Positions 3,330-45,627 of a DNA stretch of 64,000 nucleotides are shown here, piece by piece (within the stretch, counting starts at the first letter, position 1; the number at the start of each line of letters is the position of its first letter). The stretch is from a virus. The position numbers and the translations under genes are program-made. The stretch lies in the IMG/VR virus record IMGVR_UViG_3300047550_006186. One strand, written 5' to 3'. The notes under the pieces were generated by a model, which did no database searches, was not told the origin of the DNA, and saw only the letters and a list, made by a program, of their open reading frames with translations.

Positions 3330-3357
3330 TTGACAATCTCAGCAACCATGCTATATT
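3330..3357 (+). promoter_or_regulatory. Sigma70-like promoter TTGACA-N16-TGcTATATT
   Basis: TTGACA 3330-3335, extended -10 TGCTATATT 3349-3357; followed by repeated GTGACATA / TTGACATGA half-sites and an 8-bp inverted repeat ttatgtca...tgacataa (3474-3498) ahead of rIIA. Confidence 0.5.
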
Positions 3358-3549: not shown

Positions 3550-5652
3550 ATGAAGATCAATCAAGTTGTGGAAGACGTTGAGCGCGGCAGTGTCACACAG
3601 GAACGGGGCTTTAGTATTCAGGCCAATGCTAGGGCTTTCCAGATTCTCAGCAGCAACCTGTATTCTGACAAGATCACAGCAGTGATCCGTGAGCTCAGCT
3701 GTAATGCACTGGACAGTCATGTGGCTGCCGGCAAGACAGGTACACCTTTTGATGTTCATCTGCCCAATGCCCTGGAACCCTATTTCAGTGTGCAGGATTA
3801 TGGACTGGGACTCAGCCATGATCAGGTCATGAGCATCTATACAACCTACTTTGAAAGCACCAAGACCAACACCAACGAACTGATTGGTGGCCTGGGCCTG
3901 GGCAGCAAGAGCCCATTCAGTTACACCAGCAGCTTTGATGTTGTGAGTGTTCACAATGGTGTTTCTCGTAGCTATGCCATGTTCATCAACGAGGCTGGCA
4001 AGCCCAGTGTGGCATTCATGGGCGAGACACCCACTGATGCCCCCAATGGGGTCAAGGTCAGCATGCCTGTCAAGAGCACTGATTTTCAGGGCTTTCAGGA
4101 AAAGGCTGCACGAGTGTTCAAGTGGTTCAGCCACCGCCCAGTTGTGAGTGGCAGCAGCAGCTTTGTGATTCCTGAACTCAAGATCAATTGTGATATCCAG
4201 GGCCAGGGTTGGCGCCTGCAGGACGTGAGTTTTGATCGCTACTCAAGGCACCAGGCAATGGCCCTCATGGGCAATGTGGCCTATCCGCTCAATGCTGCTG
4301 TGATCAACACCAAGTTCCAGCAACTGCTTGCGTGGCCAATTATTATTGACTTTGCTATTGGCGAACTTGATATCAGCGCCAGCCGCGAAGACCTCAGCTA
4401 TGATCCAGTGACTGTGCAGGTTATTGAAACCAAGCTTGGTCAGATCATCAAGGAATTGGAGAAGCGCATCCAGGACAAGTTCAAGAATGCTGCTACACTG
4501 TGGGAAGCACGTCTGCTGTTGAAAAAGATGACCTCTGATCGAACCCTGAACGATATCCTGTATGTGATGGAGAGAGGTGGCTTCAGGGTCATGTGGAAGG
4601 GCGAGGAGGTCAGCCACCATCACATCAATTGGCACAAAATGTTTCTGGATGTTGATACTGATCCTCATCCGCCAGTTTATGACGTGAGTACTTTCAGCCG
4701 TGCTCGCTATTGTAGAGCTATTGAACCCACAGACAAAGTTGTGTTCATCCTCAAGGATGTGAGTGATACAAGCGCTCGATGCAAGCTGGCCTATTACAAT
4801 ACCCAGAAGCGAGCTTTTATGATTGAAGCTGCCATTGGCAATGACGCCACCAAGTGTCCTCAGGTTGCTCGTCTTCTCAAGCACATTGGTGATCCGCCCA
4901 CCATCCTGGGGAGCAGCCTCTCCAAGGCTCCTCGCAAGAGCATGAAGTTCAAGGGAATTGTTTGGACTGGCAACAGCAGGACATGGCAGCCTCGCAAGAG
5001 CGATAACTGGACTGGAGAGAAGGAGCTCCTCAGTAGCCAGGGTGGTTATTATGTGACCATCAGTGGTTTGGATCCAGTTTACATTGTGAGTGCCAAGGAG
5101 GAAAAGCAGCTGAACCTCAATGATATTGTCCACAGTGCCCAGGCATTGGGCATCCTTGCCAAGACAGATCAGGTTTGGGGCATCAACAAGACCAACAGCC
5201 GTCTGATCAAGGATGAACCCAAGTGGATCAATGTGTATGAGTTCGTGCAGAAGAAAGTGCTTGAGCTGATCAGCAATGGCAACACTGCTGACCTGGTTCA
5301 TGCTCGTGAACAGTATGAATTGATCAACACCAAGTTCTACACCAATCATGATGTGTGGACTCGTATGTTTGGCAATCATGACAACAGCTTGGGCAAGTTT
5401 GTGCGGGCTTGGAAGAATGCTGCGGTGGCAGGCAGCAAGATGGACCTGCGGGCATTGCGCACACTTGTCACAGTTTATGGAGTCGACCTGGAGGGGCGCA
5501 AGACTGTCAAAACAGAGAGCTTGATTGATATGTGGAGTCAGGCCGTCAAGGACTATCCCATGCTGGTCAAGTTTGAGCGTGATAGTAGCGGAGATATCTT
5601 TTGGCCACTGCTGGTTGATTACGTGAATTTTGTTGACATTACCAAGAAGTAA
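3550..5652 (+). CDS. rIIA: rIIA-like protein with N-terminal GHKL (HATPase_c) ATPase domain
   Basis: 700 aa; GHKL N-box ELSCNALDSH and G-rich loop GGLGLGSKSPF; size and position immediately upstream of an unmistakable rIIB homolog. Confidence 0.8.
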   Translation: MKINQVVEDVERGSVTQERGFSIQANARAFQILSSNLYSDKITAVIRELSCNALDSHVAAGKTGTPFDVHLPNALEPYFSVQDYGLGLSHDQVMSIYTTYFESTKTNTNELIGGLGLGSKSPFSYTSSFDVVSVHNGVSRSYAMFINEAGKPSVAFMGETPTDAPNGVKVSMPVKSTDFQGFQEKAARVFKWFSHRPVVSGSSSFVIPELKINCDIQGQGWRLQDVSFDRYSRHQAMALMGNVAYPLNAAVINTKFQQLLAWPIIIDFAIGELDISASREDLSYDPVTVQVIETKLGQIIKELEKRIQDKFKNAATLWEARLLLKKMTSDRTLNDILYVMERGGFRVMWKGEEVSHHHINWHKMFLDVDTDPHPPVYDVSTFSRARYCRAIEPTDKVVFILKDVSDTSARCKLAYYNTQKRAFMIEAAIGNDATKCPQVARLLKHIGDPPTILGSSLSKAPRKSMKFKGIVWTGNSRTWQPRKSDNWTGEKELLSSQGGYYVTISGLDPVYIVSAKEEKQLNLNDIVHSAQALGILAKTDQVWGINKTNSRLIKDEPKWINVYEFVQKKVLELISNGNTADLVHAREQYELINTKFYTNHDVWTRMFGNHDNSLGKFVRAWKNAAVAGSKMDLRALRTLVTVYGVDLEGRKTVKTESLIDMWSQAVKDYPMLVKFERDSSGDIFWPLLVDYVNFVDITKK

Positions 5653-5693: not shown

Positions 5694-7082
5694 ATGACTA
5701 TTCCGTATATTGTTACCAAGGATAGCGTGACCGTCATGTATAACGGTGTGACCACCACCGTCCGAGACGGTATGATCAACTACGCCAGCCTACGCGAAGC
5801 AATTCGCAACAAGGATTGGGATAGCATTCCCAATCTACTCAACCCTGCCCGTGCAGTTGAATCTTTTGGCAATGGTGCCATTGAGGTTCGTGACGGAGAG
5901 GTCTACTACCAGGGCGAAATCATGCGCAACGGGCTAACCCGTCGCATCCTGGAAATGGTGGGAGAGGGCTTTGACGCTGATCCGCTAACCAAGTTTCTAG
6001 GCAAGCTCATGGACAATCCCAGCAAAACTGCTGTGGATGAATTGTATTCTTGGCTTGAAGGCACCAACCTGCCCATCACAGAAGATGGTTGCTTTATGGC
6101 CTACAAGAAGGTGGGTGAAGATTATCTGGATTTCTATACTGGCAAGGTTCTCAACAAGCCTGCAGGGTTCATGACGGATGCGGATCTGGAATACATCAAG
6201 AACACACAGGGTGTGGTGAGTGTGGAAGTCACGGATGGTGTGACCACAGTCAGCATGCCACGCAACAAGGTTGATGACAACCGTGACCGCACCTGCAGCC
6301 AGGGCCTGCATTTCTGCAGCCTCAGTTACCTGCCCCACTATCATGGTGGACGTGGTCGCGTGCTGCTGGTCAAGGTTGATCCTGCAGATGTGGTGAGCAT
6401 TCCCAGCGATTACGACAATGCCAAGGGCCGTGCATGGCGATACCAGATTGTGGGCGAGCACACAGATGGTGAAACTCGTGAAGCCTACGCTACTCCTGTT
6501 GCCACACCTGATGGCAAGCCCACCTATGGACGCCAGTTTCTCACAGAGGATGTCAACACCCTGGTGCTGGGTGTGAACTTTGGCACCGAAGATCGCGCAA
6601 CCCTGGTGCGTGATATGATCGCAGATTGCAGTCACCAAGTAGGCACCAGCCGCACTGGAGAACAGGGTCGGGATGATGGTTTTGATGATGCCTGGAACAA
6701 GGCAGATGCAAACCTCAGCCGGTTTACTGGCAGCAACATGCGTGAGGCTGTGGAATATGCACAGGCATATTTTGAAGGCTACGACAAGTGCAATGGTTTT
6801 GCACCCCAGGTGCAGGTAAACAACACAGAGGCTCAAGATCAGGCCAATGTGTATTCATATGAAACCGTTGAGCAGCGTGATGAGATTGTCCGAGTGCTGA
6901 GCATGCCCATCAACAAGAATGGTGCTCGTCATGGATATGACAATGGCTATGACGATGGCCAGCAAGATGCTGAAAGTGACAAGCGAAATGGCCGATCCTT
7001 CAACCTAGAAGCTGCCATTCCAGGTGGCAAGAACTACCGAGACGGTTATATCAAAGCATATGTACTCCACTACTGCTGGTGA
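5694..7082 (+). CDS. rIIB: rIIB-like protein
   Basis: Strong similarity to T4 rIIB C-terminal core: ITEDGCFMAYKKV..., RTCSQGLHFCSLSYLPHY, RVLLVKVDPADVVSIPSDYDNAKGRAWRYQIV (T4: TQTCSRGLHVCSKSYIRHF...VKVHPRDVVSIPIDYNDAKMRTCQYEVV). Confidence 0.85.
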   Translation: MTIPYIVTKDSVTVMYNGVTTTVRDGMINYASLREAIRNKDWDSIPNLLNPARAVESFGNGAIEVRDGEVYYQGEIMRNGLTRRILEMVGEGFDADPLTKFLGKLMDNPSKTAVDELYSWLEGTNLPITEDGCFMAYKKVGEDYLDFYTGKVLNKPAGFMTDADLEYIKNTQGVVSVEVTDGVTTVSMPRNKVDDNRDRTCSQGLHFCSLSYLPHYHGGRGRVLLVKVDPADVVSIPSDYDNAKGRAWRYQIVGEHTDGETREAYATPVATPDGKPTYGRQFLTEDVNTLVLGVNFGTEDRATLVRDMIADCSHQVGTSRTGEQGRDDGFDDAWNKADANLSRFTGSNMREAVEYAQAYFEGYDKCNGFAPQVQVNNTEAQDQANVYSYETVEQRDEIVRVLSMPINKNGARHGYDNGYDDGQQDAESDKRNGRSFNLEAAIPGGKNYRDGYIKAYVLHYCW

Positions 7083-8125: not shown

Positions 8126-9925
8126 ATGATTGAACTGAATGACCCCACTGTAATTGCACATACTGACTCACAAGCATTGAACGTTTTGTTGGCAAAAATC
8201 CAAAGACCCATTCCTGATGAATCCAAATATTTGGAACGACTGGAGCAAGAGCTCAAAATAATAGATGAACAAAACTTCAGTCCACATTTTTTGAGAGTGT
8301 TGGAAGTTTTGGACCTTACCAAAGACATACCACACATCACTAGAGGCAGTGCAGGCAGTTCACTTGTTTGTTATCTACTAGGCATAACAGATGTTGATCC
8401 AGTCAAATATGACATTCCATTGGCTAGATTTTTGAACCCCCTGCGTGATGATTTGCCCGACATTGACATAGATTTTGGTCAAAAATTTCACAAAGAAGTA
8501 TTGGAACGTATCTATCGCCACTGGCCAGGTAGAGCTGCCCGCCTCAGCAACTACGTGAAATATCGTGAAAAAAGTGCCCAAAAAGAAGCATTGAAGAGAG
8601 TGTGTGGCATCAAGGGCAAAGCTGCCAACCAACACAAGCCAGAACACCTAGTGCCCAAACACAAACACAAGGAATGGAAAAATTTATCAGAAAGGTTGTT
8701 GGGCAAAAAGAAATGTATCAGCAAGCATCCTGGCGGTGTGATTGTTTTTGACCAACCGCCTGCCAAAAGTTTGTTGTTACAAAAAGACACCCAAATCTTG
8801 CTGGACAAATATGAGTGTGAAGATCTTGCGCATTTGAAAATCGACGTGCTCAGCAACAGAGGATTGAGTGTGCTGTGGGATTGTAGTGGTCAAGGTCCGT
8901 TTGAATACAACCATGAATGCGATCAGACCCTTGCCATGCTGGCAGCAGGCAACAGTTTTGGGATCATCCAAGGAGAATCTCCCGTGATGCGGCGAACACT
9001 TCGCGCTCTCAAACCTCAAACGGTGGATGATCTCACACTTGCCACAGCATTGATTCGTCCTGCTGCCTTGACTGGTAGACAAAAGGGTGTGTTTTTTAGA
9101 GAATGGATTGGACACAATAAACAGCCTGGTGCCCTCAAACACAAGGATGGATTGGTATTTGATGAAGATGCAATTGATTTGATCTGCAAGGTATTGGATG
9201 TGGATGAGTTTGAGGCTGACATGTATCGCCGCGGATTCGTCAAGAAAAATGAAGAGATGATGTTTCAATTTTTGGAGAAGATTGGCAACCATCCACGTAG
9301 AGAAGAGATAATGTATCTGCTCAAAAACATGGATGGTTTTGGACTATGCAAAGCCCACAGTGTGAATCTGGGTAGGTTGGTATATGCTCAAGCTTGGGAA
9401 AAACAGCACAATCCTCAAAAGTTTTGGTTGGCTGCTCTACAAAACGCATGCAGCATGTATAGACCCTGGGTGCATATTGAACACGCAAAATCAGCTGGCT
9501 GGCAAATACAGGGCAAGAAACGACCCTGGCTGGTCAAAAACAACATATTATACAATGAAAATTGGCAAGTTCCTTTGTTTGACAGCCATTGGGATCAATT
9601 GGCACACATGGGATTTTGGACACACAAGTCTTGGATACCAGGCACCTATTATCAACAAATGGGCACCACAGCAGCATTTTGTGGAATAATTGCTGCACAC
9701 AGAATTTATCATTGTGGCCAAGGAGAGTTTGTTACTTTTGCCACATTGGGCACAGGTGCTGGTGAATTTTTGGAAGTTGTTTTGCCAGGTATGATCAATG
9801 TCAAAAATACAGCTTTTGTGGAAGGCATGGGAGAAGTGGAAGTCAAAAACAACAACACTGTTATATATACTAGAACATTTGAAACATTGTCCACAAGAGA
9901 ACATGCTAAGCACCACGACAAGTGA
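8126..9925 (+). CDS. dnaE: Minimal DnaE-like (C-family) DNA polymerase catalytic core, lacking PHP and C-terminal accessory domains
   Basis: Matches Pol III alpha palm/fingers motifs: RGSAGSSLVCYLLGITDVDP (DnaE [20 protein letters not shown]), ARFLNPLRDDLPDIDIDF (ERFLNPERVSMPDFDVDF), KHPGGVIV, LKIDVLSNRGLSVL, DGFGLCKAHSVNLG; only 599 aa. Confidence 0.7.
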   Translation: MIELNDPTVIAHTDSQALNVLLAKIQRPIPDESKYLERLEQELKIIDEQNFSPHFLRVLEVLDLTKDIPHITRGSAGSSLVCYLLGITDVDPVKYDIPLARFLNPLRDDLPDIDIDFGQKFHKEVLERIYRHWPGRAARLSNYVKYREKSAQKEALKRVCGIKGKAANQHKPEHLVPKHKHKEWKNLSERLLGKKKCISKHPGGVIVFDQPPAKSLLLQKDTQILLDKYECEDLAHLKIDVLSNRGLSVLWDCSGQGPFEYNHECDQTLAMLAAGNSFGIIQGESPVMRRTLRALKPQTVDDLTLATALIRPAALTGRQKGVFFREWIGHNKQPGALKHKDGLVFDEDAIDLICKVLDVDEFEADMYRRGFVKKNEEMMFQFLEKIGNHPRREEIMYLLKNMDGFGLCKAHSVNLGRLVYAQAWEKQHNPQKFWLAALQNACSMYRPWVHIEHAKSAGWQIQGKKRPWLVKNNILYNENWQVPLFDSHWDQLAHMGFWTHKSWIPGTYYQQMGTTAAFCGIIAAHRIYHCGQGEFVTFATLGTGAGEFLEVVLPGMINVKNTAFVEGMGEVEVKNNNTVIYTRTFETLSTREHAKHHDK

Positions 9926-10020
9926 ACTACTGTTGGTTTTTAGGGCGTGGTAGTTCACTATGCGTTTCGCAGCAGCATATTTGAAAATTGGCTGAATTCG
10001 TATTTTGACATCAAAAAGAG

Positions 10021-10048
10021 TTGACTTGATTTAAATTTGCCATATTAT
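10021..10048 (+). promoter_or_regulatory. Sigma70-like promoter TTGACT-N16-TATTAT
   Basis: Upstream of ORF 10074; AAGGA SD. Confidence 0.4.
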
Positions 10049-10073
10049 GATCCTTGAAAGCAAGGACATATAG

Positions 10074-10277
10074 ATGTTATTCCGAGTTGATTATACCAGC
10101 TTTGCACGAGATCGCAATGGTGATTGGGACAGGCAGGAAGGCTGGTTCCTCACTGAGGGCAAGGACGAATCCAACGTCCTGAACTTTTATGCCAAGAACG
10201 GCAAGTTTCAAGGTCTCAGGGTCACACCCGCAAGTGATCAGGACAAGATCAATTACGGCGTACTTCCAACTGATTAA
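10074..10277 (+). CDS. Hypothetical small protein (67 aa)
   Basis: ORF with own promoter and SD. Confidence 0.45.
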   Translation: MLFRVDYTSFARDRNGDWDRQEGWFLTEGKDESNVLNFYAKNGKFQGLRVTPASDQDKINYGVLPTD

Positions 10278-10305
10278 GTCTTGATCCAATCCAAGGAGAA
10301 CAAGT

Positions 10306-10554
10306 ATGACATCAATTTTTTATGGGACGGTGGTGCCTGATAGGCTGCCTTCTGGCCAATTTCGTCGTTTGATGGAACATGAAGTTCCTTGCCATCAGGA
10401 AGATGGTGGGCAGGCCATGATTATAGAGCTGGGGTCTGGTGCTGAAGCAGAGATGTTTGTCAGGCTACAAAGCTGGGACACGCTGCGTGAACATCCGCAG
10501 ATGCAGATGTGGATTGGCAAGCGGATTAGCGTGACTGTGGAAGTATTGGATTAA
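10306..10554 (+). CDS. Hypothetical small protein (82 aa)
   Basis: AAGGAG SD 7 nt upstream of ATG. Confidence 0.45.
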   Translation: MTSIFYGTVVPDRLPSGQFRRLMEHEVPCHQEDGGQAMIIELGSGAEAEMFVRLQSWDTLREHPQMQMWIGKRISVTVEVLD

Positions 10555-10561
10555 ATTTTGG

Positions 10562-10589
10562 TTGACATTGTCTCAACATGTGTTATGTT
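10562..10589 (+). promoter_or_regulatory. Sigma70-like promoter TTGACA-N16-TGtTATGTT
   Basis: Same TTTTGGTTGACA context as the 12.5-14.5 kb promoter array. Confidence 0.5.
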
Positions 10590-10599
10590 GTGAGATAAA

Positions 10600-10824
10600 A
10601 TGAAAGAAATGCAAATGCCAAAAGATGCATTTAATGTTGGCGACCGAGTCAATGTGGTTCGAACCCGTCACGGATGGTATGACGGAAGCTTGCAGGCAAC
10701 CGTGGTTTCCAGGCATCAACGAGACACAGGCACTTTTAGCTATATGGTTAGGGATCTGGATGGTGCCGTGCATGAGGTCAATCATACACGCGACATGTAT
10801 AAGTCTTTGGGCAACAACAGATGA
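10600..10824 (+). CDS. Hypothetical small protein (74 aa)
   Basis: ATG 11 nt downstream of promoter-proximal leader. Confidence 0.4.
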   Translation: MKEMQMPKDAFNVGDRVNVVRTRHGWYDGSLQATVVSRHQRDTGTFSYMVRDLDGAVHEVNHTRDMYKSLGNNR

Positions 10825-10889
10825 GCTTTTTGTGGTTGACATCACCAACGTCTGTGCTATAGAGCGCTTACAAAGCAAGGAATATTAAA

Positions 10890-11603
10890 ATGGAATTTGA
10901 TGGTGCAATGCCAGGATTGCCAAAGTGGCCCCAGATGCGTGTTTGGGGGCCCAGCATCACTCCCAAGCAGGCACAGGAGATCATCATCCGCACCGATCAT
11001 TTCTGGCAGGGCGGTGGCGGCAACGATCATGATTTCCAGCGGCGGCTGTGTGCTGCTGTTGACTTCCCCTACATGGAATATGGCGATCCAGACACAGACT
11101 GGAATGCCTACTACGAGGGTACGGAGCGGTTCCGTACCAGCATTGGATACGTCAACACAGAATACGTCCGCAATGGTTGGATCAGCAACTCATTCATCTT
11201 TGGCCCTAGTGGCTGGTGTTGGCCTGATGGAACAATTCGCTTTGTCCACAATGTGGGTAAGTGGCCTTCTGTGGAGGAAATCCTGGAAGATTGGCAGGCG
11301 ATTGCCAAAGCATGGCCCTTCCTAGACCTTGATGCCTGTTTGATGAGCGGCGAAGGCAGTGAGGACAATATCAAGCCCGTTGCGATTATCCAGGTCAAGG
11401 ATGGCATTGCCACCGCACATGATCCTGACACGTATGAATTTCTGTCAAGGTTTGGTCAAGTAAGTGACAATTTTGAGCTGCCAGACCTAGGTACAGCGGT
11501 GCGCAGTATCCTGATGAGTTCTACAAATCGTGAACAGCGTTGGACCATAAATGAGGTCAAGGAAATGGTCACCCAGGTTCGCAACAACCTGTCACAGTCT
11601 TAA
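10890..11603 (+). CDS. Hypothetical protein (237 aa)
   Basis: Long ORF, SD-like aaggaatatt upstream. Confidence 0.5.
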   Translation: MEFDGAMPGLPKWPQMRVWGPSITPKQAQEIIIRTDHFWQGGGGNDHDFQRRLCAAVDFPYMEYGDPDTDWNAYYEGTERFRTSIGYVNTEYVRNGWISNSFIFGPSGWCWPDGTIRFVHNVGKWPSVEEILEDWQAIAKAWPFLDLDACLMSGEGSEDNIKPVAIIQVKDGIATAHDPDTYEFLSRFGQVSDNFELPDLGTAVRSILMSSTNREQRWTINEVKEMVTQVRNNLSQS

Positions 11604-11883
11604 TATAACACCACACCCAAAAATTCAGATGTCAAGCAAGGAAGTATAACATGACAACGTGGGCTCTAGTGCTGATCCTCTACACAGGATTTAACTATCA
11701 AATGACCAACGTGCCAGGCTTTGCCACAGAAGCAGTTTGCGTGAGTGAGGGCAAAAAGTGGCAAGAACGTAGGCGTTCCACACATACCTATCACTGCGTG
11801 GAAGTCCAAGGCAATAGCAAGAACTGATTGAGATTTTTGGCGTTATCCCAACGTCAATTTTACACAACATTCTGACAAGGAAT

Positions 11884-12282
11884 ATGCAAATGAAGTTTCG
11901 CAACAAGATGCTGGCTCTTCCCATCCTGGCCCTTCTGGGTCTGGCAGGGTGCGATCGCACGGACGCTGACGTGGCCAGCTACAACATCAGCAAGGCGGCT
12001 GACAACTTCGAGATCAACCGCCGCATCGTGTTCATCAATACCTTCACCAACGACTACGTGCTGGTGATCGAGGGTCTGTGCAGCCTGGGCAACAGTGACA
12101 CCAACCTGCGCATGAGCGTGACCTGCAAGACCGGCCCCAGCACCTTCAAGAAGCATCACCTGGGCCTGGGTGCCAACGTGACCTTCGTGAGCGAGCAGTT
12201 GGATGCGGCCAAGGCCAGCACCTACCACTACCGCGTGGTGTTCAAGCCCAGCACGCTCATGCCCAACATCGAGATCCGATAA
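11884..12282 (+). CDS. Lipoprotein (high-GC, probable xenolog)
   Basis: Signal peptide + lipobox LLGLAGC; about 60% GC versus about 43% flanks. Confidence 0.55.
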   Translation: MQMKFRNKMLALPILALLGLAGCDRTDADVASYNISKAADNFEINRRIVFINTFTNDYVLVIEGLCSLGNSDTNLRMSVTCKTGPSTFKKHHLGLGANVTFVSEQLDAAKASTYHYRVVFKPSTLMPNIEIR

Positions 12283-12304
12283 GGTCAGACAGGAGACACA
12301 TCAC

Positions 12305-12541
12305 ATGCAACTAGGTAATATCCTCACAGGTATCCAAATCCTGCAGAAATATTATGACAATCCTAACAGATACCATATGTGTGCTGAACATGATGAAATC
12401 TATCTCACTGCAACCAACAAGCCTCTGGCCCAAAGCGATCTCCAACTCATGTTGGAATTGGGTTGGTTTCAGGAAGATGGTACTCAAGAAGATGATCCTG
12501 AAAACTACTGTGTAGACGAGCCTTGGAAGGCATTCGTCTAA
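12305..12541 (+). CDS. Hypothetical small protein (78 aa)
   Basis: AGGAG SD then ATG 12305; 3' end overlaps a terminator-like hairpin. Confidence 0.45.
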   Translation: MQLGNILTGIQILQKYYDNPNRYHMCAEHDEIYLTATNKPLAQSDLQLMLELGWFQEDGTQEDDPENYCVDEPWKAFV

Positions 12542-12548
12542 ATTTTTG
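12521..12548 (+). terminator. Stem-loop + T-run immediately upstream of a promoter (PeSL-like arrangement)
   Basis: gacgagcc-ttggaa-ggcattcgtc then taaattttt. Confidence 0.4.
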
Positions 12549-12549
12549 G

Positions 12550-12585
12550 TTGACATTACGGGAACAACCTGCTATGTTGTTCCCG
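12550..12585 (+). promoter_or_regulatory. Sigma70-like promoter TTGACA-N17-TGcTATGTT with 10-bp perfect inverted repeat flanking the -10
   Basis: TTGACA 12550-12555; cgggaacaac (12559-12568) / gttgttcccg (12576-12585) palindrome encloses ctgctat. Confidence 0.55.
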
Positions 12586-12604
12586 AACGCAAAGGGATAG
12601 GTTG

Positions 12605-12805
12605 ATGTTTCTAGTTATGCGAACGCACTCTCCTAGCACAGATAAGCGAGGTGGGCTTTGGCAAGTTGTTAGCAGGCCTTTTGGATCTCGTCAGGCGGCC
12701 CAAAATTGGTGTGAATTCATGCAGAAAGAATACCAGGAAGATCATCCACGAGGGTCGCATAAGTTTTTTGTGATTGAAACTCTTGGGCCCAATAATGGAG
12801 AATGA
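12605..12805 (+). CDS. Hypothetical small protein (66 aa)
   Basis: AAGGGA SD; 3' end carries the repeat agttttttgtgattgaaactcttgg also found at 13783. Confidence 0.45.
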   Translation: MFLVMRTHSPSTDKRGGLWQVVSRPFGSRQAAQNWCEFMQKEYQEDHPRGSHKFFVIETLGPNNGE

Positions 12806-12814
12806 TTTTTTTGG

Positions 12815-12842
12815 TTGACAGCCATACTAAACCTGCTATAAT
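12815..12842 (+). promoter_or_regulatory. Sigma70-like promoter TTGACA-N16-TGcTATAAT
   Basis: Perfect consensus hexamers plus extended -10; promoter + 5'UTR (about 50 bp) duplicated at 13303. Confidence 0.6.
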
Positions 12843-12869
12843 GGGCACACCAAGCAAGGAACACTGAAC

Positions 12870-13289
12870 ATGAGCAACAAGCTGACGGTTGGCGACGTAT
12901 TTGAAGCCTGCAATGGCATGCGGGTGTATGGTATGATCCCCAAGCATTTTGCCTACGCCAACAGGGCTAACGATCCCACGCCCGCTCATTGTGAGCTGAC
13001 GGTGGGAGAAATCAAGAGTCGCGACAGCCATACCTTGGACCTTGGTTACCTCAAGGGCCTGTATGTGGTGGAGCATGCTGCCTCAAAGGGCGGTGGCACT
13101 GGCCATGGGCCTCATGACATCTACCCGGATGGTTGGCACATTCGTGCCCGCAAGCTCAAGGCTGATAGCAGCTACGACCCTCATGGTGTTGAGATTGATT
13201 TCTACCAGAGCGGTTCCTTCACGGTGGTGAACCCGACTGTGCCTGTAGTGGGCAAGCTTCACCGCAAGGTGGATTTTGTGGCTGAGTAG
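12870..13289 (+). CDS. Hypothetical protein (139 aa)
   Basis: ATG 28 nt after -10; ORF track 12870..13289. Confidence 0.5.
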   Translation: MSNKLTVGDVFEACNGMRVYGMIPKHFAYANRANDPTPAHCELTVGEIKSRDSHTLDLGYLKGLYVVEHAASKGGGTGHGPHDIYPDGWHIRARKLKADSSYDPHGVEIDFYQSGSFTVVNPTVPVVGKLHRKVDFVAE

Positions 13290-13302
13290 CCAAAAATTCT
13301 GG

Positions 13303-13330
13303 TTGACATTCCCTCCAAACCTGCTATAAT
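13303..13330 (+). promoter_or_regulatory. Sigma70-like promoter TTGACA-N16-TGcTATAAT (duplicate of 12815 promoter/UTR)
   Basis: aacctgctataatgggcacaccaagcaaggaa(c/t)actgaacatgagcaa shared with 12828-12877. Confidence 0.6.
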
Positions 13331-13357
13331 GGGCACACCAAGCAAGGAATACTGAAC

Positions 13358-13798
13358 ATGAGCAAACCCAACCCCACCAAGCGGATTGCCACCAAGCATA
13401 TTGATAAGGTGGTGATGATCAGGGACGAGAGCGATGAGCGGGAGCTGCTGGCGTTTGAGAACGCCGATGCAGCCAGCCTCTTTGAGGGCTGCCTCAACGA
13501 CAGCGGCTATGGTAGTGCCTATGGTGGCTATGAGGTAGAGTGGCCCAGCATGGATGATGTGCGCAAGACAAGGGGCTATGAGGACTGGCTCAAGAACGGA
13601 CAGCGTGTGATCAGCCTCGCTTACATGAACTACGTGAGCGAGCGCATGGACGCTGACGAAGAGTGCGATGCCAGCTACCTGCTCAACATGGAAATGGTCA
13701 AGGACGGCTATGCGCCAATGAGCCTCGCGGACTGGGAAACGCTGTATCCAGAGGAGTGCGAGGACACTGACGAAGCTGAAGAAGTTTTTTGTGATTGA
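13358..13798 (+). CDS. Hypothetical acidic protein (146 aa)
   Basis: ORF track; D/E-rich C-terminus. Confidence 0.5.
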   Translation: MSKPNPTKRIATKHIDKVVMIRDESDERELLAFENADAASLFEGCLNDSGYGSAYGGYEVEWPSMDDVRKTRGYEDWLKNGQRVISLAYMNYVSERMDADEECDASYLLNMEMVKDGYAPMSLADWETLYPEECEDTDEAEEVFCD

Positions 13799-13834
13799 AA
13801 CTCTTGGCAACAAGAATTAGTCATAAATTATTGG

Positions 13835-13862
13835 TTGACACTATGGCCTATCATGCTATACT
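13835..13862 (+). promoter_or_regulatory. Sigma70-like promoter TTGACA-N16-TGcTATACT
   Basis: Consensus hexamers, TTATTGGTTGACA context. Confidence 0.55.
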
Positions 13863-13888
13863 GTCCTTGTTGAATAAGGAGCAGGACA

Positions 13889-14164
13889 ATGGCTCGCAAA
13901 ACGATTGATGTGTCAATGATGGTGGACAGGGTGAACAAGGCCTTGGCTACTTCAACCTGCCCGCCCGACTCGAGGATGGGTATGATCACAGTGTTGGAAA
14001 TCATGCTGCAAGAAGCAAGTTGCTACAAGGGATATCGGCCCTTGCATGAAGATGAAGTGCCTCAGGGACATCTGCCAGCTATCAGGATGGCTGAAGATGG
14101 TAGCATGTTGCCCTATCCAGAGAGGTTCGTCAACTGCGACGATACTCGTCGCAGGTATTTTTGA
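13889..14164 (+). CDS. Hypothetical small protein (91 aa)
   Basis: AGGAG SD (aaggagcaggacaatg). Confidence 0.45.
   Translation: MARKTIDVSMMVDRVNKALATSTCPPDSRMGMITVLEIMLQEASCYKGYRPLHEDEVPQGHLPAIRMAEDGSMLPYPERFVNCDDTRRRYF
14128..14160 (+). terminator. Stem-loop + T-run upstream of next promoter
   Basis: gcgacga-tac-tcgtcgc then aggtattttt. Confidence 0.4.
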
Positions 14165-14175
14165 GGCAAAACTGG

Positions 14176-14203
14176 TTGACATTTGATCAGCATGTGCTAT
14201 ATT
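14176..14203 (+). promoter_or_regulatory. Sigma70-like promoter TTGACA-N16-TGtgcTATATT
   Basis: Consensus hexamers. Confidence 0.55.
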
Positions 14204-14229
14204 GGCCTTGTTGACCCAGGAGGCTAGCA

Positions 14230-14457
14230 ATGGCTGTGTTACCACATCACGTAGAGCTGAGAAATACTAGTTCAGTATTAGATCAGGCCCAGGAGTGGTG
14301 CCACAAGCAATGGCCCAACACGCACCAAGCAACTTGGTATAGTGGCCCAATCAAGGAACCTTTAACCAGACGCCTACAGCCTTCCAGGACCTGGTCCTTC
14401 CAATTCAAGGAGGATGCAGCAATGTTTGAATTGGCATGGATTACCTCCACCAATTAG
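14230..14457 (+). CDS. Hypothetical small protein (75 aa)
   Basis: GGAGG SD (caggaggctagcaatg). Confidence 0.4.
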   Translation: MAVLPHHVELRNTSSVLDQAQEWCHKQWPNTHQATWYSGPIKEPLTRRLQPSRTWSFQFKEDAAMFELAWITSTN

Positions 14458-14474
14458 ACTGGTTGATTTTTTGG

Positions 14475-14502
14475 TTGACATTTCTTCAGCCTGTGCTATA
14501 AG
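14475..14502 (+). promoter_or_regulatory. Sigma70-like promoter TTGACA-N16-TGtgcTATAAG
   Basis: Consensus -35, near-consensus -10. Confidence 0.55.
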
Positions 14503-14529
14503 TAGCATATGAAAAACAGGAGCGGTGTG

Positions 14530-14688
14530 ATGAGCAAGGGTGATAAGATCGTTGGTGTTGCGCCTCGTATCAGCCGTCGTGCGATCGAGCTGTTCCAGGA
14601 CAACCGTTTCAAGCCGCGTATTATCAAGAACAAGCGTGCCTACACTCGCAAGGGGCGCGGAGCTGAACGAGCTGGCAATGGAGACTGA
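14530..14688 (+). CDS. Small basic protein (52 aa, R/K-rich), GC-rich codons
   Basis: AGGAGCGG SD then ATG 14530; MSKGDKIVGVAPRISRRAIELFQDNRFKPRIIKNKRAYTRKGRGAERAGNGD; below ORF-track size cutoff. Confidence 0.35.
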   Translation: MSKGDKIVGVAPRISRRAIELFQDNRFKPRIIKNKRAYTRKGRGAERAGNGD

Positions 14689-14857
14689 TGACGACATTCG
14701 CGCACCATTTTCGTGGTGCGATCAGCAAAAGCTAGCTCATGCTGAGGCAATGGCAGAAAAGCTGTTGGATAGATACCCGCAGTTGGCAGAGATGTGGCTT
14801 GACAGTGCTGACCTAATTCTCAATCGTATCAACCCAACGGGATCCTCAATCGATTAA
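14678..14857 (+). CDS. Small acidic protein (59 aa), overlapping previous gene end
   Basis: METDDDIRAPFSWCDQQKLAHAEAMAEKLLDRYPQLAEMWLDSADLILNRINPTGSSID in frame of ORF 14540..14857. Confidence 0.3.
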   Translation: METDDDIRAPFSWCDQQKLAHAEAMAEKLLDRYPQLAEMWLDSADLILNRINPTGSSID

Positions 14858-15033: not shown

Positions 15034-15801
15034 ATGAGCAAGGTCATCGTTGAGCGTCCCCGGATCGGGGGCAAGCTGGTCCGCAAGGGGCGGCGCATCG
15101 ACGACGACCTCCAGGTTAGCCACGAGGGCATGCGTGCCCCCTACGTTCGCCACTACAACAACAAGGAGCTCAACGAGAACCTGGCACCACTGCTGCGCTT
15201 CCTGGACTCCCGGGTTGGCCGGCGGTGGGACGACGTTTACAGCGAGATCTGCAAGAACATCCGCCCCGACAGCACCGTGCAGCAGCACGTCCTGGTCCAC
15301 GTCAAACAATTCGTGAATACCCACGTCCGCCGCAACGGGGACGGAGAGCTCTGGGACTACGATGGCCGTCCCGGACCGCTCAGTAGTTGGTCCCGGTTCT
15401 ACGTCGATCCGGATAGCGGCATCCTCACGCGCAATCCCAATCGGCAGGGCTGGTCCGCCCAGCGACGCGAGTACCGCCGGGAAAAAGAAGCCGAGCGTTT
15501 GGCCATCGAGCGTCGGCTGCCGGACGGCACCGACGTGCGGAAGCACGGTGGCATTTGGTACGCTGGTGTGCGCAAGGAGGTCCCTGCCCCTGTGAAGCGC
15601 ACCAGGATCGCCGTCGACGGCAGCACCAGGGAATACCTCGAGGGTGGCGAGGTGTACGACTACTTCCTCGAGGTCCTCGTTCGCCACCCCCAGCTTCCCC
15701 GCAAGAGCTGGGGCAACGCGGTCACCGCCTCCCACTATTACGCTAGCAAGCGCCAGCTCAACAGCGCTGAGCTCCGGAGGCACGGCCTGGAGAACGATTG
15801 A
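15034..15801 (+). CDS. Hypothetical protein on a high-GC island (255 aa)
   Basis: About 62% GC; MSKVIVERPRIGGKLVRKGRR...; antisense ORFs here are GC artefacts. Confidence 0.5.
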   Translation: MSKVIVERPRIGGKLVRKGRRIDDDLQVSHEGMRAPYVRHYNNKELNENLAPLLRFLDSRVGRRWDDVYSEICKNIRPDSTVQQHVLVHVKQFVNTHVRRNGDGELWDYDGRPGPLSSWSRFYVDPDSGILTRNPNRQGWSAQRREYRREKEAERLAIERRLPDGTDVRKHGGIWYAGVRKEVPAPVKRTRIAVDGSTREYLEGGEVYDYFLEVLVRHPQLPRKSWGNAVTASHYYASKRQLNSAELRRHGLEND

Positions 15802-15814
15802 CATGCTGTGATGT

Positions 15815-15995
15815 GAACTATCACCCCCCCTCTAGGGCTGTAGCTGGCTGCTTGATCGTAGTGGCTGACAGCAGACCCCAATGAGTGAGAATACCTGTGA
15901 CCACATCCACAGGCGCAAGAGCCAGTTCCTTCCCCACATGATCTATATTCCACGGTTGATGTCCCCAGTTCTTGATGTTGATGGCTGCATATGAC
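15815..15995 (-). mobile_element. Solo right-end + 3' tnpB remnant of IS200/IS605-family element A
   Basis: gtgaactatcacc...ctagggctgtagctggctgcttgatcgtagtggctgaca...ccacaggcgc...tgatgtccccagtt matches RE/3' region of copies at 39711, 50165, 25004. Confidence 0.5.
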
Positions 15996-16063: not shown

Positions 16064-16654
16064 ATGAGGAACCAAACACGCATGGAAAACAAGGCCTGCA
16101 CTAATCAAAATCTACCCAGCTTGGAATCCAACAATAGTTATTTCTTTTGTGAAGATTTCAGCAACAAAACAGTCAAGCCTGTGATTGAATGGATTCTGGG
16201 CAACAATTTTCTACCCAACAGTCAGCGTCCGCCCCATCTCACATTGATCATCAACAGTCCGGGAGGAGAAATGCCCGCAGCATTTGCCCTGATAGATGTT
16301 ATCAAAGGCAGTGCCATCCCCATTCACACATTGGGACTAGGGCAAATCAGCAGTTGCGGTATCCTGACTTTCATGAGCGGAGAAAAAGGGCATCGCACAC
16401 TCACACCCAACACAAGCATCCTCAGTCATCAATGGGCTTGGGGTAGCTATGGCAAGGAGCATGAATTGATGGCTCGTGTGAGAGAATTTGAACTCACCAG
16501 CCAGCGTATGATCAATTTATACAAACACTGCACTGGTTTGAGTGAGACAAAAATACGTGAAGTGTTGCTGCCTGCCAAGGATGTATGGTTGAGTGCCGAA
16601 GAAGCAGTTGAATTGGGCATTGCTGACTCTATCCAGTCCACATATGCAAAGTGA
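16064..16654 (+). CDS. clpP: ClpP-like serine protease (S14 family)
   Basis: LIINSPGGEM, GQISSCGILTFMSG (Ser), ILSHQW (His), C-terminal EAVELGIADSI typical of ClpP. Confidence 0.7.
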   Translation: MRNQTRMENKACTNQNLPSLESNNSYFFCEDFSNKTVKPVIEWILGNNFLPNSQRPPHLTLIINSPGGEMPAAFALIDVIKGSAIPIHTLGLGQISSCGILTFMSGEKGHRTLTPNTSILSHQWAWGSYGKEHELMARVREFELTSQRMINLYKHCTGLSETKIREVLLPAKDVWLSAEEAVELGIADSIQSTYAK

Positions 16655-20751: not shown

Positions 20752-21510
20752 ATGAGAGAGATCAACAAACACAATACAACCTTGTTTTTGATGCAAGTGC
20801 TTGCACATGGTGTGCTGCTGAGCATGCTAGTTTGGGCCAGTTGGCCACTTTGGTTTTTCACCTGCATAGGTTACTTCCTTCTGAGTTGTGTGGGTACTAG
20901 TATTGGTTATCACAGGCTATTTGCCCATGGAAGCTTCCAATCACCCAAATGGTTTGAACAATCCTGCTTGCATCTGGGCAACATGGCATTAGTGGGCAGC
21001 AGCATCAGCTGGACGGCCAGCCACAGAGCGCATCATCACCACTCGGATCAAAGCCCAGCAGACACCCACAGTCCACACCACCATCCCTGGTATCGCATAA
21101 TCCTGTTGGCCATGTTTCAACCCGTAAGCATGCGATATGTGAAAGATCTAGCACGCAACCATGATCATGTTTGGTGGCACAAAAATTATTTTCTAGTTCA
21201 TGGTGCGGTGTGGGGTCTAGGATTGCTTCTGGCACCACAATTCACGGCAGCATTTGTCATTGCACCACAAGCACTAACCTGGATTACGGGTGCCAGCTTG
21301 AACTGGGTGAACCACAAATGGGGCTATAGCAATCACAACACATGCGATCACAGTACCAACAATTGGTTCTACGCATTGGTATTTTGGGGAGAAGGCTGGC
21401 ACAACAACCATCACCACAATCCCAAACGATCCTATTTTGGTGAGCGTTGGTGGGAGATTGACGTTTCTGGCATGATTATCCGAATGATTGAAAAAAAGAA
21501 GTTGACTTAA
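20752..21510 (+). CDS. Delta-9 acyl-lipid/fatty-acid desaturase
   Basis: Three His boxes HRLFAH, HRAHHHHSD, EGWHNNHHHNP; 4 TM architecture. Confidence 0.7.
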   Translation: MREINKHNTTLFLMQVLAHGVLLSMLVWASWPLWFFTCIGYFLLSCVGTSIGYHRLFAHGSFQSPKWFEQSCLHLGNMALVGSSISWTASHRAHHHHSDQSPADTHSPHHHPWYRIILLAMFQPVSMRYVKDLARNHDHVWWHKNYFLVHGAVWGLGLLLAPQFTAAFVIAPQALTWITGASLNWVNHKWGYSNHNTCDHSTNNWFYALVFWGEGWHNNHHHNPKRSYFGERWWEIDVSGMIIRMIEKKKLT

Positions 21511-21587: not shown

Positions 21588-22652
21588 ATGAACAAAGAAT
21601 ACGATTTTCTGGTCTTCATTGGGCGGATGCAGCCACCCACTGTGGCACACTGCTCCATTATCGAGCAAGCTCTCCTAAAATCAAACAAAGTGATAGTGGT
21701 GCTGGGAAGCTGCAATAGTGCTCGCACCCTTCGCAACCCTTTCACATATGATGAGCGAGTTCTCATGCTGCGACGGTGCATGACCAACTCACAAAACGAA
21801 CAGATTATCACAGTGCCCATGGACGACTACACCTACAACGATGAAATGTGGGTGGTCAAGTTGCATGAGACTGTGAACCGTGCAATTTTGGAAAACATTC
21901 CTGGCAATTCACAATATTGCTATAACAACGGTATGATCAACCAGCGTGTGGGCCTGATTGGCCACGCCAAGGACAACACCAGCTACTACCTCAACCTGTT
22001 TCCTGAATGGGGCAGCGAGAACGTGCGCAATATTCCAGGAGTTGATGCCACCAGCCTGCGTGATGCATTTTTTGCACAAGGCATGCAGAGTGTGAACGAC
22101 ACGCTGGTGCGGCCTGGTGTGCGTGAATTTCTGGAGGATTTCATCCAGACCCTTGCTTACATCAACCTGCGCGAAGAGCGTGAATTTGTGGCCAAGTACA
22201 AGAAAGCCTGGGAAGCTGCGCCCTACCCGCCCACGTTCGTCACGGTTGATGCTGTGGTGGTGCAGAGCGGCCACGTGCTGTTGGTCAAGCGGGGAGCCAA
22301 TCCTGGCAAGGGGATGTGGGCCATGCCTGGTGGGTTCCTGGATCCCCTGGAGACCCTGGAACAGGGTGCCATGCGAGAGCTGCGGGAAGAGACCAAGCTC
22401 AAGGTGCCCGAACCTGTGCTGCGTGGCAGCATTGTGGCGCGGGAAACATATGATCATCCGCACCGCAGCAGCCGTGGCCGCACCATCACCACAGCATTTT
22501 TGATCCACCTCAAGCCTGCTGCCAAGTTGCCCAAGGTCAAGGGCAGTGATGATGCAGCAGAGGCTGATTGGGTCAGAATTGCTGACCTGGACCCGCACAC
22601 CTTGTTTGAAGACCACTACCATGTGATCATGAATTTGGTACGCAGGATCTAA
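21588..22652 (+). CDS. natV: Bifunctional NMN adenylyltransferase / Nudix ADP-ribose pyrophosphatase (NatV/NadM-Nudix)
   Basis: N-terminal nucleotidyltransferase (VFIGRMQPPTVAHCSII) + Nudix box GGFLDPLETLEQGAMRELREETKL. Confidence 0.8.
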   Translation: MNKEYDFLVFIGRMQPPTVAHCSIIEQALLKSNKVIVVLGSCNSARTLRNPFTYDERVLMLRRCMTNSQNEQIITVPMDDYTYNDEMWVVKLHETVNRAILENIPGNSQYCYNNGMINQRVGLIGHAKDNTSYYLNLFPEWGSENVRNIPGVDATSLRDAFFAQGMQSVNDTLVRPGVREFLEDFIQTLAYINLREEREFVAKYKKAWEAAPYPPTFVTVDAVVVQSGHVLLVKRGANPGKGMWAMPGGFLDPLETLEQGAMRELREETKLKVPEPVLRGSIVARETYDHPHRSSRGRTITTAFLIHLKPAAKLPKVKGSDDAAEADWVRIADLDPHTLFEDHYHVIMNLVRRI

Positions 22653-22790
22653 AAAATATCCCCTGTGCTGGGGATAAAAAACCACTTTACAAGCAATTTT
22701 TTTGGTGTTATTGTGGTAACATAAAGCACATGGACTAACAGCCTAGGATAGACCAGGGCTGAAACAACAACTGCAAAGGAGTTTTGCACC

Positions 22791-25581: not shown

Positions 25582-25595
25582 AGATAAGTAATTGT

Positions 25596-26986: not shown

Positions 26987-28411
26987 ATGCACGGAGTACC
27001 AGAAATGAAAAATGTCAACAAAACACATACTAAATCAGTGGACAGGGACGTTGCAAAGATCTACTTGCAGGAAGTGAGTCAAAACAAACTGCTCACTCAT
27101 GCACAAGAAATTGAACTCAGTCAGCAAATTGAAAATGCCAAACAGAATTTGATAGGTGTATTGTTTGCTATTCCCATGTGTGTGAAATATTTTAATCAAC
27201 AGATCATGTTGATTCTCAATGGCACAAGTGATGATTGTGTGGCATTTGATTGGGAAACAGTCAACAGTCAAAGCTTGATGCAAGAGATCACACATTTACA
27301 TGACATAATTGAATTGTATATGCAAAACAATTGTGTGGATTTGAATGCCAGGTTGCAAATTGGTGAAAAAATCAGCCAACTGCCTCTCAAGCTGGCATTT
27401 TTTGATATTGCCAGCAAGCCATTGCTGGACAAAGGCAGCAAATTGAGCCAAGTGCAGGGAGAATTCATGCGATTTGCTGCCAAACATAATATTAGCCGAC
27501 AGGTGTTTTTGGACAATCATTTGGAGCGTGTGCCTTGTTCCACATGGCAATCTTTTGTTGCCACACATGAATGTGTGGTGAAAAACTATCAACAACAAAT
27601 TACAGCCATTTGTGAACCCACTGGTTTGACTGTCAGTGAATTGACCACTGCGCTGGAAAAAATCAGGCAGTGGCAGAAAATCAAAGACAATAGTGTGGAA
27701 ACCATGCTCAAAAGCAACCTACGTTTGGTGGTAAGTGTGGCCAAAAAATATATCAGTGTGAGCAACACTCCCATGTTGGATCTTGTGCAAGAAGGCAATA
27801 TGGGACTGCTCAAGGCTATTGAAAAATACAATTGGAGACTGGGTTATAGATTCAGCACATATGCAACTTGGTGGATCAAGCAATGTGTACTCAAAGCCCT
27901 AAATGAACAACATCGTATCATTCGTGTGCCCAGTCACATGACACAACTGGTCAAAAGAGTGGGCAGAGCACAGGAAGAATTTTTAGCTTCGCATGGTTAT
28001 GAAGCTGGTATAGACGATCTAGCACAAATATTGGAAGTGGACTGTGAACAAATCCGCAAAGTATACACAGTTGCCCAGGGCACCATCAGCTTGGAAACAC
28101 CTATTGGTCAGGAAGAAGATCAGAACCTAGGCAGTGTGTTGGAAGATGTGGATCATGTTAACGCTTTTGACCTATTGGCACATGTGGATGCTCAAGAAAA
28201 CATGAGCAAAATATTGGCTCTACTCACTCCCAAAGAAGAGCGTGTGATTCGCATGCGATTTGGTATTGGCCTGGATAAAGAAAGCACTTTGGAAGACATC
28301 GGCACTGTGATGGGTGTCACACGAGAACGTATTAGGCAAATTGAACTCAAAGCTTTGCAAAAGCTCAAAAGCCCTGAATTTGCCGATAAAATTCAACAGG
28401 CCTGGCAGTGA
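26987..28411 (+). CDS. Sigma-70 family (group 1/2-like) RNA polymerase sigma factor
   Basis: Region 1.2 (AKIYLQEVSQNKLLTHAQEIEL), region 2 (NLRLVVSVAKKYISVSNTPMLDLVQEGNMGLLKAIEKYNWRLGYRFSTYATWWIKQ), region 3 (IRVPSHMTQLVKRV), region 4.2 (LEDIGTVMGVTRERIRQIELKALQKL); likely start ATG 27005 after GGAG. Confidence 0.85.
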   Translation: MHGVPEMKNVNKTHTKSVDRDVAKIYLQEVSQNKLLTHAQEIELSQQIENAKQNLIGVLFAIPMCVKYFNQQIMLILNGTSDDCVAFDWETVNSQSLMQEITHLHDIIELYMQNNCVDLNARLQIGEKISQLPLKLAFFDIASKPLLDKGSKLSQVQGEFMRFAAKHNISRQVFLDNHLERVPCSTWQSFVATHECVVKNYQQQITAICEPTGLTVSELTTALEKIRQWQKIKDNSVETMLKSNLRLVVSVAKKYISVSNTPMLDLVQEGNMGLLKAIEKYNWRLGYRFSTYATWWIKQCVLKALNEQHRIIRVPSHMTQLVKRVGRAQEEFLASHGYEAGIDDLAQILEVDCEQIRKVYTVAQGTISLETPIGQEEDQNLGSVLEDVDHVNAFDLLAHVDAQENMSKILALLTPKEERVIRMRFGIGLDKESTLEDIGTVMGVTRERIRQIELKALQKLKSPEFADKIQQAWQ

Positions 28412-45605: not shown

Positions 45606-45627
45606 GGTAGAGGTATTTAAGGGGTTG

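Follow-up and report, generated by a model that had tools for sequence, protein, structure and literature searches.

We describe here a region of a 64,000-nucleotide (nt) stretch of viral DNA (IMG/VR record IMGVR_UViG_3300047550_006186, referred to throughout as the window) in which a dense array of near-consensus sigma70-type promoters stands ahead of small accessory genes between 10.0 and 14.9 kb. Such an array had been proposed in an initial annotation, and the enrichment of its promoter motif bears the proposal out. In our view the array probably represents a hyperplastic region of accessory genes in a large uncultured phage, built from portable promoter cassettes that double as recombination modules. 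The motif is enriched in the window and conserved across a clade of relatives, the array is an insertion with respect to those relatives, indels and mosaics between strains fall at the conserved boxes, and genes unrelated to each other have cassettes in common. The open reading frames (ORFs) may have accessory or host-interaction roles, and the promoters may be used by the host sigma70.

The motif GGTTGACA-N13/14-TGYTAT has nine exact matches in the window, whereas the expectation derived from 100 dinucleotide shuffles is 0.01 and none of these contains as many as nine. All nine are on the + strand, with starts at 3328, 10560, 10834, 12548, 12813, 13301, 13833, 14174 and 14473, and eight of them lie within 10.5–14.5 kb. 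A generic sigma70 scan of 5–20 kb gives 39 sites against 19.3 ± 4.3 in shuffles, and its top scores are at 12815 and 13303 (12/12 with TG), 13835 and 14176 (11/12 with TG), and 10562 and 12550 (10/12 with TG). The array promoters listed at the outset (10562, 12550, 12815, 13303, 13835, 14176 and 14475) are all present, and a window-wide scan recovers the other listed sites at 1169, 3330, 10021, 45625, 47874 and 48376; P10836 is a further member of the family that was absent from that list (Table 1). Promoters start 6–35 nt past the stop codon of the preceding ORF, and intergenic gaps that hold a promoter measure 63–90 nt, as against 22–56 nt for gaps without one. From the end of the -10 box to the ATG, which is preceded by an AAGGA-type Shine-Dalgarno (SD) sequence, the distance is 25–28 nt in nine of ten cassettes, the exception being P10562 with only 10 nt. 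The initial annotation put the ORF lengths at 50–150 amino acids (aa); behind the array promoters they run from 52 to 237 aa, and P3330 is followed by an ORF of just 21 aa.

Table 1. Predicted features of the promoter array and of its surroundings (window coordinates).
Feature	Position	Strand	Remarks
P3330, same promoter family	3330..3357	+	5' of a 21-aa ORF and rIIA
rIIA	3550..5652		
rIIB	5694..7082		
DnaE-type DNA polymerase III alpha gene	8126..9925	+	Pfam DNA_pol3_alpha and finger domains
Lineage-specific accretion	9926..14472	+	12 small ORFs and 8 promoters, from polymerase gene to promoter-s52 unit
P10021, promoter-like, TTGACT-16-TATTAT, no TG	10021..10048	+	then s67a (10074-10277), s82 (10306-10554)
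P10562, GGTTGACA-16-TG-TATGTT	10562..10589	+	imperfect inverted repeat around -10; then s74 (10600-10824)
P10836, GGTTGACA-16-TGC-TATAGA	10836..10863	+	from motif scan; then s237 (10890-11603), s58 (11651-11827), VG64-family gene (11884-12282), s78 (12305-12541)
Terminator-like hairpin, then AAATTTTT	12514..12539	+	3' end of s78; fold, segment z = -2.9
P12550, GGTTGACA-17-TGC-TATGTT	12550..12578	+	then s67b (12605-12805)
R2 repeat, copy 1	12761..12796	+	C-terminal codons of s67b
Promoter-5' UTR cassette, copy 1 (P12815, 12/12 consensus, TG)	12809..12877	+	through ATGAGCAA of s139 (12870-13289)
Promoter-5' UTR cassette, copy 2 (P13303, 12/12 consensus, TG)	13297..13365	+	through ATGAGCAA of s146 (13358-13798)
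R2 repeat, copy 2	13782..13817	+	last codons and stop of s146, other frame than copy 1
P13835, TGC-TATACT	13835..13862	+	then s91 (13889-14164)
Terminator-like hairpin (9 bp, 6 GC pairs), then GTATTTTTGA	14134..14154	+	inside 3' end of s91
P14176, TGC-TATATT	14176..14203	+	then s75 (14230-14457)
P14475, conserved, TGC-TATAAG	14475..14502	+	then s52 (14530-14688), s59 (14678-14857)
ClpP gene	16064..16654		3' of array
RpoD-like sigma factor, full-length, regions 1.2, 2, 3, 4	26987..28411	+	possible reader of array promoters

The location of the array is best understood by comparison with relatives (L001–L014), taken from IMG/VR and metagenomes, whose polymerases are 60–79% identical in aa to that of the window. 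The genes on its 5' side, rIIA, rIIB, a 185-aa ORF (o185) and the DnaE polymerase, are found in the same order among these relatives. Six of them (L001, L006, L007, L011, L012 and L014) have the ortholog of the P14475-s52 unit (P-s52) immediately after the polymerase gene, and the closest relative (L013, 79%) has just one extra promoter and an ORF of about 34 aa between the two. Because the polymerase gene is joined directly to P-s52 in relatives, we interpret the segment from 9926 to 14472 as a lineage-specific accretion; by gene order, the variable region is anchored on the left by the conserved polymerase gene and on the right by P14475. The suggestion that the region is hyperplastic is thus upheld by the absence of the array at the corresponding position in seven relatives. 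The GC content at third codon positions (GC3) of the array ORFs ranges from 0.37 in s67b to 0.86 in the VG64-family gene and varies even between neighbours, which indicates mixed origins.

The promoter grammar is common to the window and seven relatives, and in ten clade loci totalling 174 kb all 47 motif sites lie on the gene strand. Positions that were left free in the search pattern are also conserved among the 45 unique sites, with GG at -2 and -1 (40 and 37 sites), T at -3 (28 sites), C after TG (36/45), and G after the -10 hexamer (30/45), and the clade consensus further includes an A/T-rich tract from -10 to -4 and the hexamer TATAaT. In seven orthologs of the P-s52 promoter the -35 box and TGCTATAA are invariant and the spacer has diverged, a pattern that suggests the promoter behaves like a functional element. 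Similar arrays occur elsewhere in the clade: L012 has one 5' of rIIA, with five promoters 270–440 nt apart, and long same-strand arrays of the same motif surround the s146 homologs in L016/L017, L020 and L022, in DNA of 50–61% GC (61% in L022). At L001 11755–11765 the stop codon (TGA) of the DnaE gene sits in the -35 hexamer TTGACT of the next promoter. We note that a stop embedded in the next -35 (TTGAC) is found both there and at the s146 homolog of L016 (3540–3552), an extreme packing of coding and regulatory sequence.

Within the array, the two 69-nt cassettes that end in the first codons of s139 and s146 are 88% identical, differing at 8 of 69 positions, and include 49 nt with a single mismatch that cover the promoter spacer, the 5' untranslated region (UTR), and the coding sequence up to codon 3; the s139 and s146 proteins are unrelated. 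The R2 copies match over 36 nt at 89% identity, of which 26 nt are exact, where no such repeat is expected by chance. R2 encodes the C-terminus of s67b and the end of s146 in different reading frames, and because it is read in two frames it is a DNA-level repeat rather than a conserved peptide. Both repeats, the near-identical promoter and 5' UTR of two cassettes and the sequence common to two gene 3' ends, had been noticed in the initial annotation. P13835 and P14176 form a third pair, alike in the -10 box and UTR (76% over 41 nt). R2 itself may be a decayed promoter copy, consisting of an UP element and TTGAAA. Searches of IMG/VR for the exact cassette and R2 strings gave no matches.

The proposal that short repeats mark recombination junctions in this region agrees with an indel in a close strain and with the mosaics and relocation of s146. 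The UTR GGGCACACCAAGCAAGGAACACTGAACATGAGCAA of the P12815 and P13303 cassettes is found in identical form ahead of the 87%-identical s146 homolog in L016/L017, and for this reason we regard it as native to s146, with a copy now driving s139. The L016 homolog ends in EEVFG followed by its stop, which lies inside the -35 of the promoter that follows it (aagtttttggTTGACA); the s146 stop TGA of the window lies in the TTGAAA of R2, at the position where L016 has the -35 box TTGACA. Compared with L016, the window has a 43-nt insertion between GAAGAAGTTT and TTGGTTGAC that includes R2 copy 2. The homologs also differ in position, being 5' of rIIA in L020/L001-type phage and 3' of DnaE in the window.

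The close strain, L024, is represented by a short contig with 92–96% nt identity to the window. It has an extra unit between s78 and P12550-s67b, composed of a promoter, a 73-aa ORF and an R2-like tract, and this unit is flanked on both sides by TTTTTGGTTGACA, a repeat of the UP and -35 sequences. The P12550 promoter of L024 has the -35 box and spacer of the window with a different -10 tail and UTR. Following s67b and R2, the next L024 promoter is closer to P13835 than to P12815 (78% over 81 nt), as is expected if the 1,021-bp R2-to-R2' segment containing s139 and s146 is absent. Exact-protein look-ups of s139, s78 and s91 for further strain variants returned nothing new.

These observations fit a model in which each cassette is a unit of about 65–75 nt that would comprise the stop codon of the upstream gene, an A/T-rich UP-like tract, GG-TTGACA, a spacer of 16–17 nt, TGC-TATAAT-G, and a 5' UTR of about 20 nt with an AAGGA SD, leading to the ATG. 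A sigma70-type holoenzyme would start transcription at each. Promoters are predicted for nine units, and terminator-like hairpins are present at only two or three unit boundaries; with so few terminators between cassettes, transcripts would continue through successive cassettes and build up along the array. The cassettes would serve as portable 'plug-in' modules, some of them carrying genes of foreign base composition, and the conserved boxes that they have in common would allow recombination to insert, delete, duplicate and relocate genes, perhaps by homologous exchange or through mini-circles.

Among the products, s146 has homologs in 23 clusters at 57–87% identity and is acidic (isoelectric point 4.2), s139 belongs to a family of 571 cluster representatives that includes proteins of Klebsiella phage May and Salmonella phage bering, the gene at 11884–12282 has a Pfam Phage_VG64 match, and s52 and s59 are conserved in relatives. 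By these matches s146, s139, the VG64-family gene, s52 and s59 are real genes. Searches of Pfam, PHROGs, NCBIfam and PADLOC, together with fold searches, gave no functional match for the ORFs, which had been put forward in the initial annotation as candidate host-takeover or anti-defence proteins, and the sole family matches among the small ORFs are VG64, phrog_7702 and a sub-threshold SPOR. AlphaFold models of s139 (pLDDT 94) and s146 (pLDDT 82) had no significant match in the PDB, and s139 matches only uncharacterised proteins, those of the two phages just named. The VG64-family gene (phrog_478, + strand) is called 'RDF' in some records, and its GC3 of 0.86 compares with about 45% GC for the genome. 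A 90-nt part of it matches cluster-A mycobacteriophages at 84% identity, and at the protein level p079 of Rhizobium phage 16-3 shares 66% identity with it. The part of the protein that aligns with its best homologs does not include a lipoprotein-type signal (LLGLAGC) found at the N-terminus of this copy.

Several considerations weigh against the cassette model. Seven of the ORFs (s67a, s82, s74, s237, s58, s91 and s75) are predicted as coding from SD/ATG geometry alone, and they have no homolog in the loci examined. The close-strain comparison involves one strain, L024, and its contig stops inside the third promoter, so that reading it as an 'empty site' is suggestive only. That the promoters are active, and active early, is a prediction from the quality of their consensus and from the analogy offered by the neighbouring rIIA and rIIB. 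Finally, the host sigma70 need not be the reader of these promoters, because the RpoD-like sigma factor of the phage keeps the -35-contacting residues.

Either the host sigma70 or the phage sigma could be the reader, judging from the sequences of promoter and protein. It is possible, though not our preferred interpretation, that the promoters are read mainly by the phage sigma and that the array constitutes a phage-controlled middle or sustained class rather than a host-sigma70 early class, in which case the GG before the -35, the C at -13, and the G after the -10 would be marks of its specificity. The phage protein is full-length, with regions 1.2, 2, 3 and 4, and its region 4.2 (VTRERIRQIE) is identical to that of primary sigma factors; these are the residues that we take to contact the -35 box, going by the roles of their counterparts in E. 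coli sigma70. Regions 2.3 and 2.4 are mostly kept, and at what are presumably the equivalents of E. coli T440, R441 and E458, applying that numbering to the alignment, the phage sigma has L, K and Q. These substitutions, and the extra promoter positions conserved clade-wide, would suit a dedicated reader. However, the core of the motif comes very close to a perfect match with the general sigma70 consensus, which any primary sigma should read, and the motif also fronts rIIA/rIIB, which are early genes in T4. No copy of this motif was found in a search 5' of the sigma gene, and for this reason nothing ties the gene to this promoter class. Homologs of the phage sigma are numerous and are found on contigs of up to 490 kb.

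A broader version of the argument extends to the clade as a whole, and we advance it as a speculation that is rather doubtful in its full form. It supposes a widespread clade of uncultured large aquatic phages (GC 40–61%) with a promoter grammar, aaaatttTGG-TTGACA-N16-TGC-TATAAT-G with a fixed 5' UTR of about 20 nt, that is read by the phages' own sigma and acts both as a gene-capture socket and as a recombination substrate. Genes from very different donors would be expressed at once on arrival and would be moved between two hot spots, 5' of rIIA and 3' of DnaE, by a self-contained counterpart of PeSLs (see below) that needs neither the host sigma70 nor stem-loops.

The role of stem-loops is central to the comparison originally made, that the array matches the promoter-early-stem-loop (PeSL) cassettes of T4-type phages. 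A PeSL combines a strong sigma70-like promoter with a stem-loop terminator, and PeSLs lie in hyperplastic regions of T4-like genomes and are capable of forming mini-circles (PMC2839356; PMC4122927). It is unlikely that the array consists of bona fide PeSLs, i.e. composite cassettes of promoter and stem-loop terminator or attenuator like those of the T4-like phages RB49 and phi1. The layout does follow the published one (PMC2839356), with a stop in an AT-rich tract, -35, -10, SD and start codon, two terminator-like hairpins lie ahead of promoters, and the inverted repeats of P12550 and P10562 overlap the -10, as in the commonest PeSL class. However, only three of ten cassettes fold better than shuffles at z < -2 (P12550, P13835 and P14176, with z of -2.9, -2.2 and -2.1), and the clearest hairpin, one of 9–10 bp that overlaps the P12550 -10 box (12560–12584) is not kept even in L024, where its 3' arm is replaced. 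Across P-s52 orthologs the consensus fold is weak. The statement that several promoters are preceded by a hairpin and T-run thus survives in part, with two clear cases (12514–12539, which is kept in L024, and 14134–14154), one weak case before P13303 (13258–13273), and none at the rest.

Nor is the phage T4-type. The window contains rIIA/rIIB, a DnaE-type polymerase, ClpP, an RpoD-like sigma of its own and several TnpB insertion elements, and rIIA and rIIB are the only T4-like genes seen in it. INPHARED holds no close cultured relative by megablast of the region and of 25 kb, the sole match being 90 nt of the VG64-type gene to mycobacteriophages, and the best match of the polymerase is to a 484-kb uncultured phage at 32% aa identity. 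The window is clearly phage by gene content, and because its replicative polymerase is of DnaE type and no close phage is present in INPHARED, we conclude that it is not T4-type. As few of the cassettes have a significant stem-loop and the genome is not T4-type, the array is better described as PeSL- or moron-like than as a member of the PeSL family.

Two other roles for the inverted repeats were considered and set aside. An operator or stoperator reading was rejected because the repeats are unlike between cassettes and are not conserved; at promoters with a TATGTT -10 box (12560–12584, 10571–10594, and L001 5150–5178) they bracket the -10 with arms that differ in sequence. A hairpin formed by the promoter spacer that would sequester the SD in read-through transcripts across P-s52 was also dropped, the consensus fold of six orthologs amounting to -2.7 kcal/mol with one compensatory pair. 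In L007 (11785–11845) the P-s52 spacer pairs with the s52 SD region at -22.6 kcal/mol, which would mask the SD only in read-through transcripts.

An explanation without cassette exchange is that the repeats are convergent functional motifs, reflecting strong promoters and optimal translation initiation, and that the variation arises from insertion sequence (IS) activity or illegitimate recombination. Function could explain the conserved boxes, and TnpB-type IS copies or fragments are present in and near the region, at 15808–15990 and, in L024, as an IS end beside s78. We regard this account as improbable, since the identity among P12815, P13303 and L016 spans non-functional positions of the spacer, discriminator and UTR and reaches the first codons, the UP/-35 repeat stands at both ends of the extra unit in L024, and R2 is read in two frames. 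It is very hard to credit that the repeated cassettes are assembly artefacts: short-read contigs do break at cassettes, including the independently assembled Logan contigs from SRR35181308, which break inside both 69-nt copies as a true repeat longer than the assembler k-mer would cause them to, but the copies differ at 8/69 positions, the flanks in that independent sample match the window exactly, and assemblies from ENA, JGI and Logan also contain homologous cassettes, so that the artefact anticipated as a possible refutation gives way to genuine repeats.

The surroundings of the array include other variable features. A 255-aa ORF at 15034–15801 (+) has 64% GC and a GC3 of 0.83, no family match, and a single phage match, to Myxococcus phage Mx1 (35%, covering half of its length). 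It was probably acquired from a foreign source recently, at a second variable spot between s59 and ClpP, where L013 has a DNA methyltransferase-like ORF in place of the 255-aa one. IS200/605-type TnpB sites lie at 39712–41001, 50167–51456, 63009–64000, 25004–25590, 15808–15990 and 48676–49794 and at L024 1–28. Two or more of these are complete and agree with each other at about 90% identity, one runs off the end of the window, one has an internal deletion, one is a diverged TnpB, and one is a 183-nt end fragment that lies between ClpP and the high-GC ORF. The element seems to be active in the phage population, because the L024 IS end abuts s78 at about 12312. Sigma70-type promoters at 45625–45652 and 48376–48404 (+) lie about 60–85 nt 5' of tRNA-Leu/tRNA-Gln (45710–45893) and tRNA-Gly (48442–48516), and the promoter at 47874 is without an obvious product; an Rfam scan of the window reported four tRNAs only. 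The auxiliary metabolic genes are an NMNAT-Nudix and NAMPT pair for NAD salvage (21588–24206), an agmatinase (2063–3052) and a fatty-acid desaturase (20752–21510), and a 686-aa protein with CHASE2 and guanylate/adenylate cyclase domains is encoded just 5' of window position 1 (L005 1–1733, a Logan contig of the same phage). Host cues are slight: no TnpB relatives were found in GTDB genomes, an IS-end 21-mer has four scattered matches that are probably due to chance, and HIP1 is present only twice.

Comparison with known systems places the array between several of them. Morons, a concept of Hendrix and Juhala for lambdoid and other phages, are independent transcription units between genes that are adjacent in relatives. 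The array resembles them in sitting between such genes and in the deviation of its base composition from the surrounding genome, although it differs in having about nine tandem units, most of them without a terminator of their own, under one common promoter grammar. Genes 37–60 of SPO1, the pre-early and early regions of T5, and the early regions of T4 are host-takeover or early modules with many strong sigma-A or sigma70 promoters. The array has the same dense, strong host-type promoters, good SDs and small genes beside replication and rII-type genes, although this phage carries a primary-like sigma of its own. In the haloarchaeal virus HGTV-1, conserved TATA-box and inverted-repeat motifs precede ORFs (PMC3950731), so that both systems have a repeated promoter motif before most ORFs of one genome arm and a PeSL-like idea has been raised outside T4; the HGTV-1 promoter is archaeal, and that paper cites no strain-level junction evidence.

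The closest parallel is with the PeSLs of RB49/phi1, PST/T4 and nt-1/KVP40 (Arbiol et al. 2010, PMC2839356; Comeau et al. 2014, PMC4122927). Both systems have a near-consensus sigma70 promoter, an AT-rich tract with the stop codon of the preceding gene in it, an SD and a start codon, both are sited in a hyperplastic region before ORFans and by the DNA polymerase gene, and in both the indels between close relatives are bounded by cassettes, for the array in one close strain on a short contig. In addition, near-identical cassettes lie on either side of s139, an arrangement proposed as the substrate from which mini-circles are excised. The differences are that the array belongs to an unrelated phage lineage with DnaE and its own RpoD-like sigma, that the stem-loop, which is not strain-conserved, is missing or falls short of significance in most cassettes, that the motif has clade-specific extras (GG-TTGACA and TGC-TATAAT-G), and that the 5' UTR and first codons travel with the promoter. 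The array yields a precise model of the promoter, of use in annotating this clade of uncultured phages with a primary-like sigma of their own, and about 12 small genes with strong promoters of their own as candidates for host-interaction screens. If our interpretation is correct, promoter-cassette shuffling, which has been described in T4-like phages and only suggested for one haloarchaeal virus, is not peculiar to the T4-like phages, and may be a widely used means for large phages to acquire accessory genes, shed them and move them about, with the stem-loop being dispensable.

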